Shown: positions 6,574-56,172 of the stretch, piece after piece
Layout of the letters: the number at the start of each line of letters is the position of its first letter
How positions within the stretch are numbered: position 1 is the stretch's first letter
Sequence record: EF437941
Reading direction: 5' to 3' (one strand)
Source: Escherichia phage Phi1
Length of the DNA: 64,000 nucleotides
Position numbers and translations under genes: made by a program
The notes under the pieces: generated by a model
Told to the model about the DNA's origin: nothing
The model's input: only the letters and a program-made list of their open reading frames with translations
Databases searched by the model: none

Positions 6574-7965
6574 TCAAATATAGTCTACTCGATACCGCGC
6601 ACGGGTAACACCCACATATAATAACTGCATTGCCAATTCGAAGTCAACATTGTCTGTACACATGCAAGGAGTATACAGGAACACGCGGTCTACGCTGATC
6701 CCTTGTGACTTATGAATGGTGCAAGCTGGTAATGCTTTTACATTCAAGAACATACGTTTCATAGTCCAGAAAGAGTCCCAATCTGGTTTAAATTTTGGAT
6801 TCTCTTTCTTCATTTCGCGATATTGTCCGGCGACCGTATTCAGATAGATAGAGAAAATGTTCTTCTGACGTTGTTCTGTCAGAATGTTGATTTCTACCAA
6901 ATCCGGTTTATCTGTAGTGATTCCGACTGCATCTAAACCGACTTTCTGATTTAGGATTTCTTTGTCTTCGTCATCATCGACGCTTTCCACTTTCAGAGTA
7001 TAGCCTAAAACTGGTTGCGGGTCTACTCCCGTGCAACGTAATGTAAATTCACGCGGGATGACCTCTTTAACTCGGATCATCTCACCATTGTTAAAAATGA
7101 CATTGGGAATCTTCTTCCCGCGTTCATCTCGCAGATATTCGATCAACGGTTCCTGAGTAACCAGAATTTCATCTACAATCACTGGTTCATCGGTGTTATA
7201 AACGCGCTTGCGCACAATTTCATTGAGTTTTTCGACGCTCTTGTTAGTGTAAGCCAGAATACGGTTTTCTAGAAGGTCTTCCGGCGTTTTAACGGTTTCG
7301 AAATAATGTTTCATAAACTCCGGCAGAGTTGAGCTATGGAATACACCCTCGTTACCGCACTGCTTTTCGAATACCCATTTACCGTTACGGACAGCGGTCG
7401 CCACATCAATGATCGGTGCATTAGATCGTTTAATTTCTGTCAACTCCACGTTTTGAAAATTTTCATCCGTGAAGAAAGGAGAAATTGACGTTGCACCGCT
7501 CGGATCAACTGGTCGTAACTGGTGCGGATCGCCCACGGCAATAATAACAATTCGACCGTTGATACTCTTCATGAGAATATCAAATAACTTCTTATCGACC
7601 ATACTCGCTTCATCAACAATGATGATCTGAACATCATCTAGTTTAGGAGTATCTTTTTGTTCAAATACTTGAGTATCTTCATAGTTGGTCGGGTTAAGAC
7701 GCAATAAAGCATGTAAAGTAAATGCTTGACGACCTACCGCTTTACTCAAAACCTTTTTAGCCTGGTGGGTAGGCGTTGCCAAAACCACACCAGTTACACC
7801 ACGGCGGACCATTTCCTGAACAATGAATTTCATCATTGCGGTTTTACCAGTACCCGCCGCACCCCGGACAGTTGTATGCTTCTTTTGTTCAATGCGTTTC
7901 ATTAGAACATCAAAAGCATGTTTTTGCCCGTCTGTCAACATATCGAAAGTTAATACTCTGCTCAT
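6574..7965 (-). CDS. dda: Dda DNA helicase (SF1)
   Basis: 463 aa; Walker A GAAGTGKT, DEASM Walker B; strong similarity along length to T4 Dda as remembered. Confidence 0.9.
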   Translation of the reverse strand: MSRVLTFDMLTDGQKHAFDVLMKRIEQKKHTTVRGAAGTGKTAMMKFIVQEMVRRGVTGVVLATPTHQAKKVLSKAVGRQAFTLHALLRLNPTNYEDTQVFEQKDTPKLDDVQIIIVDEASMVDKKLFDILMKSINGRIVIIAVGDPHQLRPVDPSGATSISPFFTDENFQNVELTEIKRSNAPIIDVATAVRNGKWVFEKQCGNEGVFHSSTLPEFMKHYFETVKTPEDLLENRILAYTNKSVEKLNEIVRKRVYNTDEPVIVDEILVTQEPLIEYLRDERGKKIPNVIFNNGEMIRVKEVIPREFTLRCTGVDPQPVLGYTLKVESVDDDEDKEILNQKVGLDAVGITTDKPDLVEINILTEQRQKNIFSIYLNTVAGQYREMKKENPKFKPDWDSFWTMKRMFLNVKALPACTIHKSQGISVDRVFLYTPCMCTDNVDFELAMQLLYVGVTRARYRVDYI

Positions 7966-32237: not shown

Positions 32238-32741
32238 TCAAATAATTTTCACTGGAATACTATTAACAATCTTGTATTGTACTTGATTGTCAGACCCCCG
32301 CCACGGCTTCTTCGTTGGCATATCTTTAATATAACGACCATCGATGAACATGTCAACTGATTCTACAATTTTTCTTTGCTCATCATTCAATTGGTCAAGG
32401 GTATAACCGGACCATAGCCAAATATCTTTATTTGGCATCCATGATTTTACTTCATCGATGATCCGCTGTACACCCTTTAAATTGCGTTTATACAGTGGAT
32501 CTCCACCTAAGAATGTTAGCCCCTGAATAAAATCAGGTCTAAGCAGATCCAGAATCAATCCCATTGTATCATCGGTGAATGGTTCCCCGTTCTTAGGATT
32601 GAGTATACTGGAATTAAAGCAACCATCACATGCGTGTGAACATCCGGTAACGTAAAGGGAGACTCTCACTCCCTCACCGTTAACCATATCACAATCTTTA
32701 ATATCGGCATAGCGTAGTTTGCCGTATGTATCAGAACTCAT
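32238..32741 (-). CDS. nrdG: anaerobic ribonucleotide reductase activating protein NrdG (radical SAM)
   Basis: CSHACDGC (Cx3Cx2C-type cluster) near N-terminus; about 167 aa. Confidence 0.85.
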   Translation of the reverse strand: MSSDTYGKLRYADIKDCDMVNGEGVRVSLYVTGCSHACDGCFNSSILNPKNGEPFTDDTMGLILDLLRPDFIQGLTFLGGDPLYKRNLKGVQRIIDEVKSWMPNKDIWLWSGYTLDQLNDEQRKIVESVDMFIDGRYIKDMPTKKPWRGSDNQVQYKIVNSIPVKII

Positions 32742-32883
32742 ATTCAATTACCCCGAACTCGTTTACAATCTGCGCTTTATAGTAACCGCCGCGAGATGCC
32801 AATAGATAAGCTGGGCTTAGGTATTCGTATTCACGGATTTCTACTTGTGCGTTTTCAGTTTCCCAAATCAGTAAAGTCCACAT
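32731..32883 (-). CDS. small protein (50 aa)
   Basis: manual translation MWTLLIWETENAQVEIREYEY...; preceded by cassette RBS GGAGAATCAAAT. Confidence 0.4.
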   Translation of the reverse strand: MWTLLIWETENAQVEIREYEYLSPAYLLASRGGYYKAQIVNEFGVIEYEF

Positions 32884-34146: not shown

Positions 34147-36009
34147 TTACATGTGCTTAACGCGGTTTACCATCTCGGAGTGTTTCCCGTGGTTAAATGG
34201 ACGCAGATCAACAGATCCAAGATATCCACTAACGCGACGGATAACATTCATTTTTTCCAGATTATCATTGCCGCAATCAGGACAAACAAAACCAGTCTCG
34301 GTCGCTCTCATTTCCTTAGTAGATCCGCATACATGACACACATCAGAAGGAGTATTAACACCGAAGTAGTGCAATTTATCCATTGCATAGTCTACTACAG
34401 TTTCAAGACCTTTCAGGTTGTTTTTCATGTCTGGGAACTCAACATAAGAGATCATGCCACCGGACGCCAGCCAGTGATAATCTTTCTCAAAGTCGATTTT
34501 CTCAAATGGAGTGACTTTCCGGTCTACGTCGAGGTGGAATGAGTTGGTGTACCAGTCTTTATCGGTAGCGCCCTTAACAATACCAAATTGCTCTCGGTCC
34601 AGTCGATTAAATCGATAGCAAAGGCTCTCGGCTGGCGTACCGTAAAGACTAAACCCAAGTCCGGTTTCGTCCTTCCATTTTTCAGTATAATGACGCAAGA
34701 TCTTAAGAATATGTTTACCGTATCGCTGCACATCTTCCGAATCAAACGGATGAACACCAAACAGGACGCTCAATACCTCATGTAAACCAATATATCCAAG
34801 AGAGATACTAGCGCGACCATCTTTCAGCACTTCAAAAATTTCATCGTTTTGATGAATACGGAAAAATGCACCTTCGGTATACAGTACAGGAGCAACATTG
34901 GCTTTAGCCCCTTTTAAAGCGTCTACGCGACTCATGAGCGCATCAAAGCAAATAGGCATACGATTAGCTAGCTCTTGTTCGAATAGCTCAATTCTGCGCA
35001 TTACAGACGCTTTACCAGCACGACGCGCGGCAATAAGGGCAATACGCGGAAGATTCAGAGTCACAACACCTAAGTTATTACGTCCGTCTAATACTTCTTC
35101 GCCTTTCTCATTATGCCACACACCCAGGAAGCTACGACAACCCATCGGGCTAACCGGAACACTAGATCCAGTGATACTACGGTTATTCTTCGCAGAGATA
35201 TAATCAGGGGTAAGACGCTTACTAGAACATTCCAATGCAAGTTGCTTAATGTCGTAGTTCGGATCTTCCGGGTTAAGGTTTAATCCTTCTTCTAAGAACA
35301 TCACCAGCTTAGGAAACACCGGAGTTATACCATCTTTACCTAAACCTTTAGTTCGAACTTTCAGGATCGCTTTCTGAATCAGTTTTTCTTCCCAGCTAGT
35401 ACCCATACCAAATGTTAAAGTCACAAAAGGCGTTTGACCGTTGGTGGAGAACAAAGTGTTGATTTCATATTCCAACGCTTGATACCCGTCTAGCGTTTCT
35501 TTTTCTGTCTTCTCTTGTGCATAGAGAGTATCAGCTTTGATTCCGTAGGTTTCGGCATCAGCAAGGTGTTTATGATATGTTTTCTCAACATACGGTGCTA
35601 ACACCTGATCGATGTTTGCAATTGTGGTCCCGCCATATTGATGACTTGCCACCTGTGCGATAATTTGAGCGGTTACAGCACAAGCAACACCGATCGATTT
35701 AGGACTTTCGATTTGTGCGCTACCCAATTTAAAACCATTCTCTAACATGTCTTTGAGATTAACAAGACAGCAGTTAGTAAACGGCATAGCGGGTGCATAA
35801 TCCATATCATGATAATGAATATCACCGTCTACATGCGCTTTATAGATGTGCTCAGGTAACACGGTTTTAGCAATCTGTTTAGACACAGCGCCAGCAATCA
35901 GATCTCGACGTGTCGGGAATGTTCGCGCGTCTTTGTTCGCGTTCTCTTTGCTTACTTCGTTTTCTTTACCCGTTGCGATCTCTGTAATGTCTTTGATTAG
36001 TTTTTCCAT
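34147..36009 (-). CDS. nrdD: anaerobic ribonucleoside-triphosphate reductase NrdD
   Basis: 620 aa; C-terminal zinc ribbon CHVCGS...CPDCG and glycyl radical motif RVSGYLG; continuous ORF (no intron). Confidence 0.95.
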   Translation of the reverse strand: MEKLIKDITEIATGKENEVSKENANKDARTFPTRRDLIAGAVSKQIAKTVLPEHIYKAHVDGDIHYHDMDYAPAMPFTNCCLVNLKDMLENGFKLGSAQIESPKSIGVACAVTAQIIAQVASHQYGGTTIANIDQVLAPYVEKTYHKHLADAETYGIKADTLYAQEKTEKETLDGYQALEYEINTLFSTNGQTPFVTLTFGMGTSWEEKLIQKAILKVRTKGLGKDGITPVFPKLVMFLEEGLNLNPEDPNYDIKQLALECSSKRLTPDYISAKNNRSITGSSVPVSPMGCRSFLGVWHNEKGEEVLDGRNNLGVVTLNLPRIALIAARRAGKASVMRRIELFEQELANRMPICFDALMSRVDALKGAKANVAPVLYTEGAFFRIHQNDEIFEVLKDGRASISLGYIGLHEVLSVLFGVHPFDSEDVQRYGKHILKILRHYTEKWKDETGLGFSLYGTPAESLCYRFNRLDREQFGIVKGATDKDWYTNSFHLDVDRKVTPFEKIDFEKDYHWLASGGMISYVEFPDMKNNLKGLETVVDYAMDKLHYFGVNTPSDVCHVCGSTKEMRATETGFVCPDCGNDNLEKMNVIRRVSGYLGSVDLRPFNHGKHSEMVNRVKHM

Positions 36010-51681: not shown

Positions 51682-52017
51682 TTATCCTTTCTTAAACAAA
51701 TTGCGAATCCAGTATACAAACGGGATTTCTTTAAACTTGAATTTCTCTATAGTTAATTCTTTAGTAGCAAGATGAATACCATAAGCATCATGTGTCACGA
51801 TATGCCATTTTCTATAGTCCAAATGTGAACAACCGTCTGGATCTAGGTTAATAAGAGTTTCTCGCTCACTAGGATTATTTTTCCACAATTTTGTAATAGG
51901 ATCGCACATAATTCGACCTAGCGTACCATGAATAATCTCACAACGGTAAAGTTTTCCAGCAGTGAGATAGGCGCACCCGTCATAGTCGGTATAAACAAAC
52001 ACTTCTTTAACACTCAT
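51682..52017 (-). CDS. paralog family C protein
   Basis: DGCAYL ... DPDGCSHLDYRKW; internal ATG after AAGGAG. Confidence 0.5.
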   Translation of the reverse strand: MSVKEVFVYTDYDGCAYLTAGKLYRCEIIHGTLGRIMCDPITKLWKNNPSERETLINLDPDGCSHLDYRKWHIVTHDAYGIHLATKELTIEKFKFKEIPFVYWIRNLFKKG

Positions 52018-52045
52018 TTTAATACTCCTTTGTTTCGATGGGGGT

Positions 52046-52074
52046 ATATTACTACCCCCGTTTTGTTGTGTCAA
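52046..52074 (-). promoter_or_regulatory. early promoter (PeSL-type)
   Basis: TTGACA-N17-TAATAT within GGGGGTAGTAATATACCCCC hairpin. Confidence 0.5.
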
Positions 52075-52320
52075 CTACTTTTTCAAGATTTTTTTAATTG
52101 CGTTCCAAAGACCTTTATTCTCAGGTTGTTTTGGTTCTTCGATCAGTGTCCAGGTTCGACCGTCTAAGTGTGCACAATTTTTAAGACAAATAAAAATCTG
52201 GTGTCCCTTATCATCACGGATATAACCACTATTCGCAAATCTTTCATGTGGTGTATATTCATACAGTGTATTTGGTGTAATATACTTGCGGTTACTATAA
52301 GGTGTCATCACATACATCAT
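52075..52320 (-). CDS. paralog family C protein
   Basis: NCAHLDGRTW motif. Confidence 0.5.
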   Translation of the reverse strand: MMYVMTPYSNRKYITPNTLYEYTPHERFANSGYIRDDKGHQIFICLKNCAHLDGRTWTLIEEPKQPENKGLWNAIKKILKK

Positions 52321-52511
52321 GGTACTAACTCCCATTTATCACCGCGAAGATGAGAACATCCACCATCAAGAAGGATCGTAATACGAAACCCCGCATCATC
52401 TTCAATATACCCGATAGTCGGTGGATATTCGTCGTCTCGTGCCGGGGTAAAATCATACATCTTTCCCGGTGTGATATCAGTGCCTTTATTGCTATTGGTA
52501 TAAACTTGCAT
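52317..52511 (-). CDS. paralog family C protein
   Basis: GGCSHLRGDKW motif. Confidence 0.5.
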   Translation of the reverse strand: MQVYTNSNKGTDITPGKMYDFTPARDDEYPPTIGYIEDDAGFRITILLDGGCSHLRGDKWELVP

Positions 52512-53231: not shown

Positions 53232-53275
53232 AATTAAACCCTCAGTTGATTAAGAGATTGCATCATATCATCATA

Positions 53276-53308
53276 AAACGAAAAAGCCAACCCTTTTCGG
53301 ATTGGCTT
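53276..53308 (-). terminator. rho-independent terminator
   Basis: GCCAATCCGAAAAGGGTTGGC hairpin followed by T-run, downstream of grcA-like gene. Confidence 0.55.
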
Positions 53309-53317
53309 GATGAAAAA

Positions 53318-53734
53318 TTAGAGAGATTCGGTAAAGGTACGCGCGATAACGTCACGCTGCTGGTCTGGAGTCAGACTATTGAAGCGCACCGCGTAACCAG
53401 AAACGCGAATTGTAAGCTGCGGGTACTTCTCAGGATGTTCAACAGCGTCCAGCAACATTTCTCGTAACAATACGTTAACATTCAAATGCTGACCACCTTC
53501 GACAACCGGAGCACCATTATCTACAATGACAGGGCGGAAGCTAGTTGTGTGCAGTGCCAGCGAATCGACGTCTTCTGCGGTGATCACATGATCTTCTGCG
53601 AAAGTTTTACTAACAATTACTTTAGCGCCGATCAGTGCTTTCGGTTCGGATACCAGAATCATAGGCGCGAAGTGTCCACCAATAATAGTACCTTTATGCT
53701 CACCTTTCATGATTTGAATTGCTTTAAATTCCAT
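53318..53734 (-). CDS. grcA: autonomous glycyl radical cofactor GrcA/YfiD-like protein
   Basis: 138 aa; C-terminal about 60 aa nearly identical to E. coli GrcA as I remember it ([11 protein letters not shown]...[32 protein letters not shown]). Confidence 0.85.
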
Positions 53735-53744
53735 AATTCACCTC

Positions 53745-53870
53745 TTATAGATCAGGACGTTCGTCATTAACTTTTCCAACCAAAACACCATAGAGTTTAT
53801 CAGGTTGGACTTTACGATTCTTTTTAATTGTAGCACGAAATCGACGAGCTACGCTATCTTTATTTTTCAT
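53745..53870 (-). CDS. small basic protein (41 aa)
   Basis: manual translation MKNKDSVARRFRATIKKNRKVQPDKLYGVLVGKVNDERPDL; TAATG overlap with upstream gene. Confidence 0.35.
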   Translation of the reverse strand: MKNKDSVARRFRATIKKNRKVQPDKLYGVLVGKVNDERPDL

Positions 53871-54355: not shown

Positions 54356-54417
54356 GGTAAAGTCTCCAGTGAACGGGGAGAGATCCTTAGATGGTCTCCC
54401 CGTTGATGGTTAATATT

Positions 54418-54835: not shown

Positions 54836-55027
54836 TTAGATTCCGGCGATCCTGCATAGAGTTCTTGTATTAGCACCAATAAGGATAGCATTAACGACAA
54901 CCATTCCCCAATCAACCCACGGATTATTATAAATGTTAAATCCGTTTGTTAGGCCAAATACAAGCATTCCAGTACACATACTCAGAGCAACAATCAACAT
55001 CACGGTAAAACCAAATGCAAATCTCAT
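54836..55027 (-). CDS. small membrane protein
   Basis: 63 aa, two hydrophobic helices. Confidence 0.45.
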   Translation of the reverse strand: MRFAFGFTVMLIVALSMCTGMLVFGLTNGFNIYNNPWVDWGMVVVNAILIGANTRTLCRIAGI

Positions 55028-55028
55028 A

Positions 55029-55295
55029 TCATTTTCCTTTTCTCTGTTTACGTTTATAAAAGTAATACATTACATCATCACGTCCGGTGATCCAACATGC
55101 TAGGGCAGTAAACAGGTTTACAATTCCCAACACACCTACTGACGCGGCGCTGTCAACAGACATAGGAACAGTAAAGGCCATAGCTAACATAGCAACGCCA
55201 CAAATGACATTAAGCACCATTATAATAAGACCGAAGAAAACCATTGTCAATCCTCCCAAATAAGAAAACCAACAATCACGCCAGTGATAAGACAT
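55029..55295 (-). CDS. small membrane protein
   Basis: 88 aa, hydrophobic. Confidence 0.45.
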   Translation of the reverse strand: MSYHWRDCWFSYLGGLTMVFFGLIIMVLNVICGVAMLAMAFTVPMSVDSAASVGVLGIVNLFTALACWITGRDDVMYYFYKRKQRKGK

Positions 55296-55438
55296 GATGC
55301 GCCGCTAATAAGACAACCCGCGCCAAGTGATTCCCACCAGATCAGAGAAGCGACAATAACGCAAAATCCCCAGACTACCGCAATCACAACATAGGCAATG
55401 GTCGCCCAAAACATATATTTGTTCATAATAAACCCCAT
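55247..55438 (-). CDS. small membrane protein
   Basis: 63 aa, hydrophobic. Confidence 0.4.
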   Translation of the reverse strand: MGFIMNKYMFWATIAYVVIAVVWGFCVIVASLIWWESLGAGCLISGASCLITGVIVGFLIWED

Positions 55439-55611
55439 TCACCAAACAAATAAGAAAAAAGCCATATCAACAGAAACGAGGCAATTGATCCGGCAAGCAA
55501 AATGATATTAGAGAATCCGCCGTCTATCCAGGCGACAAAACAGAATACGCCAGTATAGAAGCATAAACCCATTACAAAGCATACTATAAGCAACCATAGA
55601 CAAAACGCCAT
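55423..55611 (-). CDS. small membrane protein
   Basis: 62 aa, hydrophobic. Confidence 0.4.
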   Translation of the reverse strand: MAFCLWLLIVCFVMGLCFYTGVFCFVAWIDGGFSNIILLAGSIASFLLIWLFSYLFGEWGLL

Positions 55612-55672
55612 AGAAAGCCCTCCATCGAGATAAATTAGTGCGGGTAGGGGACTGCACTACCCGCTTTGTTAA

Positions 55673-55831
55673 TCAACGCAGAGCTTGTTCTAGCGCGATC
55701 CCAAACCATCCACAAACAACGCCCATACAGACAGCTACAAGAAGATTCATTCTCTCTTTAGGGATCATTGCAATCATAACAACAACCATACAGAAAGCCA
55801 TTACCATTGAAGTTAACATTTGTTCAACCAT
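55673..55831 (-). CDS. small membrane protein (52 aa)
   Basis: manual translation MVEQMLTSMVMAFCMVVVMIAM... Confidence 0.35.
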   Translation of the reverse strand: MVEQMLTSMVMAFCMVVVMIAMIPKERMNLLVAVCMGVVCGWFGIALEQALR

Positions 55832-55833
55832 TA

Positions 55834-56172
55834 TCACACCTTTAAAGTCATAGACGCATAAACATTAATGCCAGGCCAGTTAGGATCGCAATTATACTCA
55901 ACATCCCACAAATAAAGCGGTTTAGATGTATCAGCCAAGTTTTTAAAATCTTCTACCCACATTTCAATGCTATATGATGGATAAACTAGGCTGTCATATC
56001 CTCCGTAACGTTGGCCTACTGGTCGGTCAGTAAAAACTACCTCAAGATCCGGTAATTCTTTTTCAAGGATAACCGCCAGCGCATAAATCAGACGGTCTTC
56101 CTTGTTACGCTGCCGAAGGACCGTTGTCAGTTGGTTTTTCTGGTTCACTAGCAAGCACCTCCACATTTTCAC
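55834..56172 (-). CDS. hypothetical protein (start uncertain; overlaps upstream ORF by 68 nt)
   Basis: 112-aa ORF. Confidence 0.4.
   Translation of the reverse strand: MKMWRCLLVNQKNQLTTVLRQRNKEDRLIYALAVILEKELPDLEVVFTDRPVGQRYGGYDSLVYPSYSIEMWVEDFKNLADTSKPLYLWDVEYNCDPNWPGINVYASMTLKV

Follow-up and report, generated by a model that had tools for sequence, protein, structure and literature searches.

Glycyl radical spare parts in Escherichia coli and in T4-like phages

Pyruvate formate-lyase (PFL) proper is a catalytic subunit of approximately 760 aa with Cys418 and Cys419 in its active site. The genus Krischvirus comprises the RB49-like relatives of T4 within the Straboviridae. For the small E. 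coli protein YfiD (GrcA), it was reported that it binds O2-cleaved PFL, that only then it is activated efficiently by PFL-AE, and that its N-terminal 60 residues contribute both to the binding of cleaved PFL and to activation (PMC8683613). The T4 counterpart, Vs.6, is also termed Y06I. According to the account of Wagner et al. (2001, BBRC 285:456) that is given in PMC8683613, the PFL activase transfers a glycyl radical to Y06I, as it does to YfiD, and both proteins reconstitute PFL that has been fragmented by oxygen; a 2026 review also summarizes these findings. Nolan et al. (2006, PMC1524935) recorded vs.6 with a Gly_radical domain in 6/6 T4-like genomes.

A vs.6 ortholog in phage Phi1

The window analyzed here is the whole stretch of 64,000 nt from record EF437941 (Escherichia phage Phi1). 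On its minus strand, the ORF list and our reading of the sequence agree on a gene of 138 codons that extends from an ATG to a TAA stop (Table 1). This gene is very probably the Krischvirus ortholog of T4 vs.6 (Y06I) and as such would encode a GrcA/YfiD-type protein that acts as autonomous glycyl radical cofactor for PFL. It belongs to an established family, whose function has been shown for the T4 ortholog.

Orthology to the T4 gene is seen both in the protein and in its genomic position. The Vs.6 proteins of Phi1 and T4 align over their full length (58% identity, E 4e-47). They share an N-terminal signature, a PFL-like C-terminal domain and membership in PHROG 1209, which the Phi1 protein matches over the entire profile (E 3.4e-51, residues 3-138 on profile positions 1-121 of 121). 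According to the annotations, vs.6 occupies the same slot in T4 and RB49, namely between regB and vs.8 with the lysis enzyme beyond, the order of the T4 block being vs - vs.1 - regB - small ORFs - vs.6 - vs.7/vs.8 - lysis enzyme. The neighboring products are related as well, with 42% identity between the RegB proteins and 25% (E 9e-06) between the Vs.8 proteins of the two phages. Three differences from T4 concern the architecture and the surroundings of the gene: T4 Vs.6 has 120 aa, whereas the Phi1 protein has 138 aa, the latter carries an insertion of approximately 18 residues in the N-terminal half, and nrdC.11 lies directly downstream of vs.6 in Phi1.

Phi1 is itself a Krischvirus. The 4 kb around vs.6 show 97-98% nucleotide identity to the genomes of GEC-3S and RB49 as well as to those of about 55 further members of the genus; the orthologs in RB49 and GEC-3S, annotated vs.6, are themselves 97-98% identical to the Phi1 gene. 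In phage Skers, a protein 100% identical to Phi1 Vs.6 bears the annotation 'autonomous glycyl radical cofactor GrcA'. Altogether, 1,579 records of the phage collection contain a Vs.6 homolog, and many of them carry this same designation. Among the holders are T4-like phages that infect Escherichia, Klebsiella, Salmonella, Yersinia or Aeromonas, but also T5-like phages, in which the C-terminal part only is found, and jumbo phages.

The assignment to the GrcA/YfiD class, which a first-pass annotation had proposed from the sequence alone, is supported by matches in Pfam, NCBIfam and the PDB. Pfam Gly_radical is the sole domain detected (61.3 bits, E 1.5e-16, residues 78-119). GrcA is the top NCBIfam family with 133.8 bits, which is below the equivalog cutoff of 170 (TIGR04365); the alignment begins at residue 37, and the score stays under the cutoff because the N-terminal half differs. 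The closest solved structure is E. coli YfiD/GrcA (6owr, E 5.8e-33, residues 37-138), followed by the C-terminus of PflB (E 5.5e-27). In size and architecture, the protein agrees with the class as described by TIGR04365 and IPR011140: it has 138 aa, where class members have approximately 120-140, and a C-terminal glycyl radical domain alone.

An assignment to PFL proper (TIGR01255) was rejected. The protein scores 88.4 bits where the cutoff is 994, and it covers profile positions 683-744 only. It has neither the catalytic barrel nor Cys418/Cys419 of PflB and is no formate-lyase by itself. Formate-lyase labels on phage proteins of 120-138 aa are over-calls. The annotation of vs.6 varies considerably among phage records, including 'pyruvate formate-lyase', '2-ketobutyrate formate-lyase', 'acetyltransferase', 'ribonucleotide reductase subunit' and hypothetical protein, with a 'tail length tape-measure protein' nearby.

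Expression signals are predicted on both sides of the gene, i.e., a strong Shine-Dalgarno sequence and a terminator-like hairpin (Table 1). The hairpin has a calculated RNA folding energy of -19 kcal/mol with a z of -3.07, and in the relatives G37-3, G2248 and Makalu_001 a terminator is annotated at the equivalent position. The weak promoter match that overlaps it comes from a consensus scan alone. As a side observation, the combination of terminator hairpin and overlapping sigma-70-like match (53262-53308, minus strand) resembles the promoter-stem-loop (PeSL) cassettes; in PMC2839356, such cassettes are described as agents of the shuffling of modules between RB49 and phi1. Two plus-strand ORFs that overlap vs.6, at 53246..53467 and 53486..53770, were taken as shadow ORFs, the minus-strand gene being strongly supported.

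Table 1. Positions of vs.6, its parts and the associated elements in the 64,000-nt window of EF437941.
Feature	Position	Strand	Evidence and remarks
vs.6 / phage grcA CDS	53318..53734	-	138 aa + TAA stop; ATG at 53734, TAA at 53318-53320; ORF list, Pfam, PHROG and PDB matches
Phage-type N-terminal half, codons 1-77	53504..53734	-	KAIQIxxGEHKGTI signature and ~18-aa Krischvirus-specific insertion; alignment of phage and bacterial types
Glycyl radical domain, codons 78-138	53321..53503	-	duplicates PflB residues 700-760; PflB and GrcA alignments, AF2 model
RVSGY fingerprint, codons 110-114	53393..53407	-	columns invariant in 80 homologs
Gly113 codon, predicted radical site	53396..53398	-	aligns with YfiD G102 / PflB G734
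Shine-Dalgarno AAGAGGTGA (predicted)	53738..53746	-	ends 3 nt before the vs.6 ATG; overlaps the stop codon of an upstream 41-aa ORF; sequence reading
Intrinsic-terminator-like hairpin (predicted)	53274..53308	-	10-bp GC-containing stem and T run; 10 nt past the vs.6 stop; terminator scan
Sigma-70-like promoter match, TTGGCT-17-TATGAT, extended TG	53262..53290	-	overlaps the terminator, reads into nrdC.11; consensus scan, 9/12, weak
vs.6-nrdC.11 intergenic gap, empty HEG site	53232..53317	.	86 nt; comparison with sister Krischviruses
NrdD (class III ribonucleotide reductase)	34147..36009	-	Pfam NRDD 582.9 bits, Gly_radical 81.8 bits
NrdG activase	32238..32747	-	Pfam Fer4_12 148.5 bits; corresponds to RB49 nrdG

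The glycyl radical domain

The C-terminal half of Phi1 Vs.6 is a near copy of a bacterial glycyl radical domain. Its last 60 residues are identical to E. coli K-12 GrcA at 55 of 60 positions, in agreement with the near-identity, RVSGY motif included, that the first-pass annotation had noted, and residues 78-138 are identical to PflB 700-760 (PDB 1h16, 2pfl) at 50 of 61 positions (82%). The likeness is not confined to the short motif but spans the whole domain of approximately 60 aa. Beyond it, a weaker similarity to bacterial GrcA continues for about 40 more residues and reaches the GrcA stretch ARCIVAKAGYAED. In one detail the sequence sides with PflB: the segment REMLLDA matches PflB, not GrcA.

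The sequence RVSGYAV is found at residues 110-116. An alignment of 80 homologs contains 23 invariant columns, those of RVSGY among them, and the predicted radical glycine of Phi1 Vs.6 is retained as in the small stand-alone protein of E. coli. In the AF2 model (mean pLDDT 79), the C-terminal domain includes blocks above 90. It superposes on the YfiD NMR structure 6owr (92% identity, TM(target) 0.80) and also on crystal structures of PFL.

Compared with E. coli grcA, dN of the radical domain is 0.09 while dS is saturated (Nei-Gojobori, NG86); the domain is under strong purifying selection. It is held almost constant presumably because it has to fit host PflB and PflA, and the extreme conservation of this module would reflect how tight a fit these two host proteins demand.

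The same domain raises the question of the partner. NrdD of the phage itself is another oxygen-cleavable glycyl radical enzyme that is encoded, along with NrdG, 17 kb from vs.6, and RVSGY occurs in both Vs.6 and NrdD. Nolan et al. (2006, PMC1524935) suggested a role of vs.6 in nucleotide metabolism from the shared Pfam domain. We nevertheless regard it as exceedingly improbable that Vs.6 assists the phage NrdD, be it as spare part or as accessory. A spare part must duplicate the C-terminal domain of its partner. BLASTP of Vs.6 against NrdD of the window gave a best E of 1.3 and the five residues RVSGY as the only shared stretch; the 82% match over 61 aa is instead to PflB. A role with NrdD is also at odds with the rescue of PFL by T4 Y06I, as PMC8683613 relates it from Wagner et al. 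(2001).

The N-terminal half

The N-terminal half differs from the bacterial proteins, in line with the first reading of this sequence: residues 1-36 have no alignment to bacterial GrcA. The first ~36 residues are unrelated to those of E. coli GrcA, where the bacterial type reads MITGIQITKAAN..NSFWLLD. Phi1 Vs.6 instead contains the phage-type signature KAxQIxxGxHKGTI ... IVSKTFxED. Among the top 120 database matches to Vs.6, 49 carry the phage and 54 the bacterial signature. The phage type is common to T4, Kosakonia phages, Yersinia phages and jumbo phages and is found throughout the Straboviridae. Between Phi1 and T4, the N-terminal halves share about 34% identity, in line with the neighboring orthologs.

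The AF2 model contains strands in this half (pLDDT ~80). Thus, the N-terminus of Phi1 Vs.6 is predicted to be partly beta-structured, whereas that of bacterial GrcA is disordered (PMC8683613). A Foldseek search of the model against the PDB matched the C-terminal domain and returned no match for the N-terminal half. The 18-aa insertion and the predicted partial structure of the N-terminus could alter regulation or the choice of partner.

From this half, a different function might be argued, in which Vs.6 acts as a decoy or modulator that, by binding PflA or PflB of the host, redirects fermentation or shuts it down, or else serves TdcE and not PflB. The N-terminal half is phage-specific and carries an insertion, the equivalent half of YfiD controls binding and activation, and the protein scores below the GrcA equivalog cutoff. 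A simple decoy, however, would not need what is found in the other half, namely a radical domain in which all invariant residues, among them the radical glycine, are kept under strong purifying selection. Moreover, the T4 ortholog restores PFL activity according to the account in PMC8683613. We therefore consider these functions quite unlikely and retain the reading of Vs.6 as a cofactor for PFL.

Age of the gene and comparison with T4

Amino acid identity to the host was the reason to regard vs.6, or its C-terminal half, as a recent capture from an enterobacterial grcA. To the 55/60 identities with E. coli GrcA may be added up to 57/60 with other Enterobacterales, found among the best 80 of at least 577 loci. 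With a GC content of 0.464, vs.6 lies at the 97th percentile of the ORFs in the window, and GC3 of the C-terminal domain (0.49) at the 94th; recent host-derived C-termini do occur in T4-type phages.

At the nucleotide level, the 60 codons that resemble the host gene agree with E. coli grcA at 74.4% of all positions and at 45% of third positions, and dS is saturated; 32 of the 55 codons for identical amino acids differ synonymously. Between the paralogous E. coli genes grcA and pflB, dS is 0.80, a synonymous divergence smaller than that of Phi1 vs.6 from grcA. As synonymous sites are saturated, the amino acid identity to the host is no evidence of recent transfer here. A blastn search of vs.6 against 5,426 E. 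coli genomes had pflB as its top match (75.7% over 185 nt). The search for a donor, evaluated for the best 80 of at least 577 bacterial grcA loci from species-representative genomes, gave a maximum nucleotide identity of 80%, with 58% at third positions.

In codon usage, the preference scores of the two halves of Phi1 vs.6 are equal (N-terminal +0.40, C-terminal +0.44), in contrast to a sharp break in T4. The phage-versus-host codon score of the whole gene lies at the 10th percentile of the window ORFs with a sign that is still phage-like; this mildly atypical usage is not decisive and gains meaning solely from the comparison with T4.

The claim of the first-pass annotation that an enterobacterial host gave rise to the gene recently is not borne out in view of the saturated dS, a nucleotide identity of at most 80% among the best 80 of at least 577 loci, the synteny with T4 and the phage-type N-terminus; we consider such a capture very improbable. 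The results indicate that vs.6 is an old phage gene whose radical domain has been kept host-like by selection. As the slot is shared with T4 and the N-terminus is of the phage type, the gene predates the Krischvirus/Tequatrovirus split.

T4 provides the contrasting case and served as positive control for a recent exchange. The C-terminal 60 codons of T4 vs.6 are 97.8% identical at the nucleotide level to E. coli K-12 grcA, with two synonymous differences and a dS of 0.07 (compared segments: T4 vs.6 7558-7740 and E. coli grcA 1567-1750, positions in the extracted loci), as opposed to 74% and a saturated dS for the Phi1 copy. In T4, identity to grcA begins abruptly at the EGG codons, and GC3, which is 0.18 over the N-terminal half, jumps to 0.42 over the C-terminal one. 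The C-terminal identity follows host phylogeny, with 97% for Escherichia and 91% for Citrobacter (best 80 of at least 577 loci). T4 is not alone, as 497 phage records match nt 200-384 with 95-99% identity to grcA of E. coli; vs.6 of Klebsiella phages is 80-88% identical to the E. coli gene. From these comparisons, it looks as if the radical module of the T4 lineage was recently overwritten by the host gene through gene conversion, and that of the Phi1 lineage was not.

Predicted role during infection

By homology to T4 Y06I and YfiD, the following course of events may be proposed. Oxygen would cut host PflB at its glycyl radical, G734. The C-terminal domain of phage Vs.6, whose 60 residues nearly copy PflB 700-760, would dock into the damaged enzyme, and the host activase PflA would place the radical on Gly113, the predicted site. 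PFL activity (pyruvate + CoA -> acetyl-CoA + formate) would then be regained without resynthesis of the 85-kDa subunit. Since a T4-like phage shuts off host expression, it plausibly brings its own spare part, by which fermentative energy and acetyl-CoA could be maintained in anaerobic or microaerobic infection. In parallel, NrdD and NrdG of the phage would provide dNTPs. For Phi1 Vs.6, the placement of the radical, the choice of partner and the gain for the phage are inferred.

The host components of this scheme exist, as both pflA and pflB are present in the E. coli genome. In tblastn searches, T4-like phages yielded no PflA homolog of full length, and their partial matches are presumably NrdG; the few full-length matches among phages come from records that are non-T4-like or fragmentary. 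Vs.6 must therefore rely on PflA of the host.

The presence of the phage's own NrdD and NrdG, noted already in the first reading, is confirmed by Pfam for both proteins. The picture of an investment in anaerobic infection that had been drawn from it is reasonable and fits, although it is not new. That T4-like phages carry a GrcA-type spare part together with an anaerobic reductase is consistent with infection in a gut of fluctuating oxygen.

Homing endonucleases beside vs.6 in sister Krischviruses

A comparison within the genus reveals that the stretch between vs.6 and nrdC.11 exists in two states. It measures 85-86 nt and contains no homing endonuclease gene (HEG) in the window, RB49, kvi, Makalu_001 and G2248, whereas it measures 591-662 nt and contains a free-standing NUMOD4-HNH gene in phiS, JK32, JSE, G37-3, 011D4 and FL04. 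The HEGs are of two types, one of approximately 175 aa in phiS, JSE and 011D4 and one of 197 aa in JK32, G37-3 and FL04, with a mutual identity of 27%. Neither has detectable similarity to MobD of T4, which is likewise located upstream of nrdC.11.

The HEG carriers differ from the window in a sharply delimited tract. Nucleotide identity amounts to 95-100% in vs.8, the 5' half of vs.6 and nrdC.11, but to 60-78% exactly across the 3' half of vs.6. Within the gene, dS is 0.03-0.08 over codons 1-58, whereas over the last 60 codons it lies between 1.5 and saturation. The 3' halves of the carriers contain 12-26 amino acid changes, with the fingerprint R[VI]SGYA intact. Two phages without an HEG, kvi and G2248, show intermediate identity to the window in the 3' half (90.5% and 87.4%) next to 98-99% in the 5' half. 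For these two, past loss of the HEG or partial conversion is a possible explanation.

Free-standing HEGs of T-even phages are described as having distant cleavage sites and as causing co-conversion of flanks and marker exclusion (PMC2988022). The Krischvirus locus resembles the systems SegG/gene 32 and MobE/nrdB treated there, in that an intergenic HEG adjoins a divergent vs.6 tract of approximately 200-250 nt within flanks that are 95-100% identical. It differs from them in that the window itself is without an endonuclease.

Taken together with the T4 data, these observations lead us to a tentative proposal, to which we assign slightly less than an even chance: the radical module of vs.6 may be a recurrent recombination cassette. 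The window would then represent the naive, HEG-free allele. Two distantly related HEG families would each have brought a strongly recoded 3' half of vs.6, which is likely to be the homing or cleavage target together with the co-conversion tract, and in T4-type phages the module would have been overwritten by host grcA. If this is true, mixed infection with phages of the JSE or JK32 type should lead to cleavage of RB49-type DNA in the interval 53320-53560 or close to it, and the marker should be lost. The vs.6 gene could provide a new marker-exclusion locus, and the HEG-linked replacement along with the host conversion in T4 could serve as a natural experiment on the substitutions that a spare-part domain tolerates.

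To trace where the HEG-linked alleles came from, the 3' half of JK32 vs.6 and the adjoining HEG were compared by blastn with the phage collection, which retrieved nine Krischvirus records only and elsewhere nothing above approximately 73%; the donor lineage of the divergent alleles thus lies outside the sampled phages. In a literature search that covered few subscription-journal papers, we found no description of an HEG at vs.6 or of the evolution of phage grcA beyond Wagner et al. 2001, Nolan et al. 2006 and the structural papers on YfiD.

A further candidate gene of this kind occurs nearby. In phiS, JK32 and JSE, an extra gene of 576 nt with HNH_3 and AP2 domains, another likely homing endonuclease, lies between vs.8 and the M15 endolysin gene (positions 242-817 of the extracted loci). 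It is absent from the window (~54356-54417) and from G37-3.

Further features of the region

Two groups of small genes on the minus strand flank the locus. Between regB and nrdC.11, three consecutive small ORFs of 130, 86 and 64 aa (51682-52511) share a C-terminal motif, which reads GCSHLDYRKWHIV, NCAHLDGRTWTLI and GGCSHLRGDKWELV, respectively; the three look like tandem paralogs. Downstream of the M15 endolysin gene, the stretch 54836-55837 contains five short and very hydrophobic ORFs of 54-88 aa, predicted to encode membrane proteins, and displays a strong AT skew.
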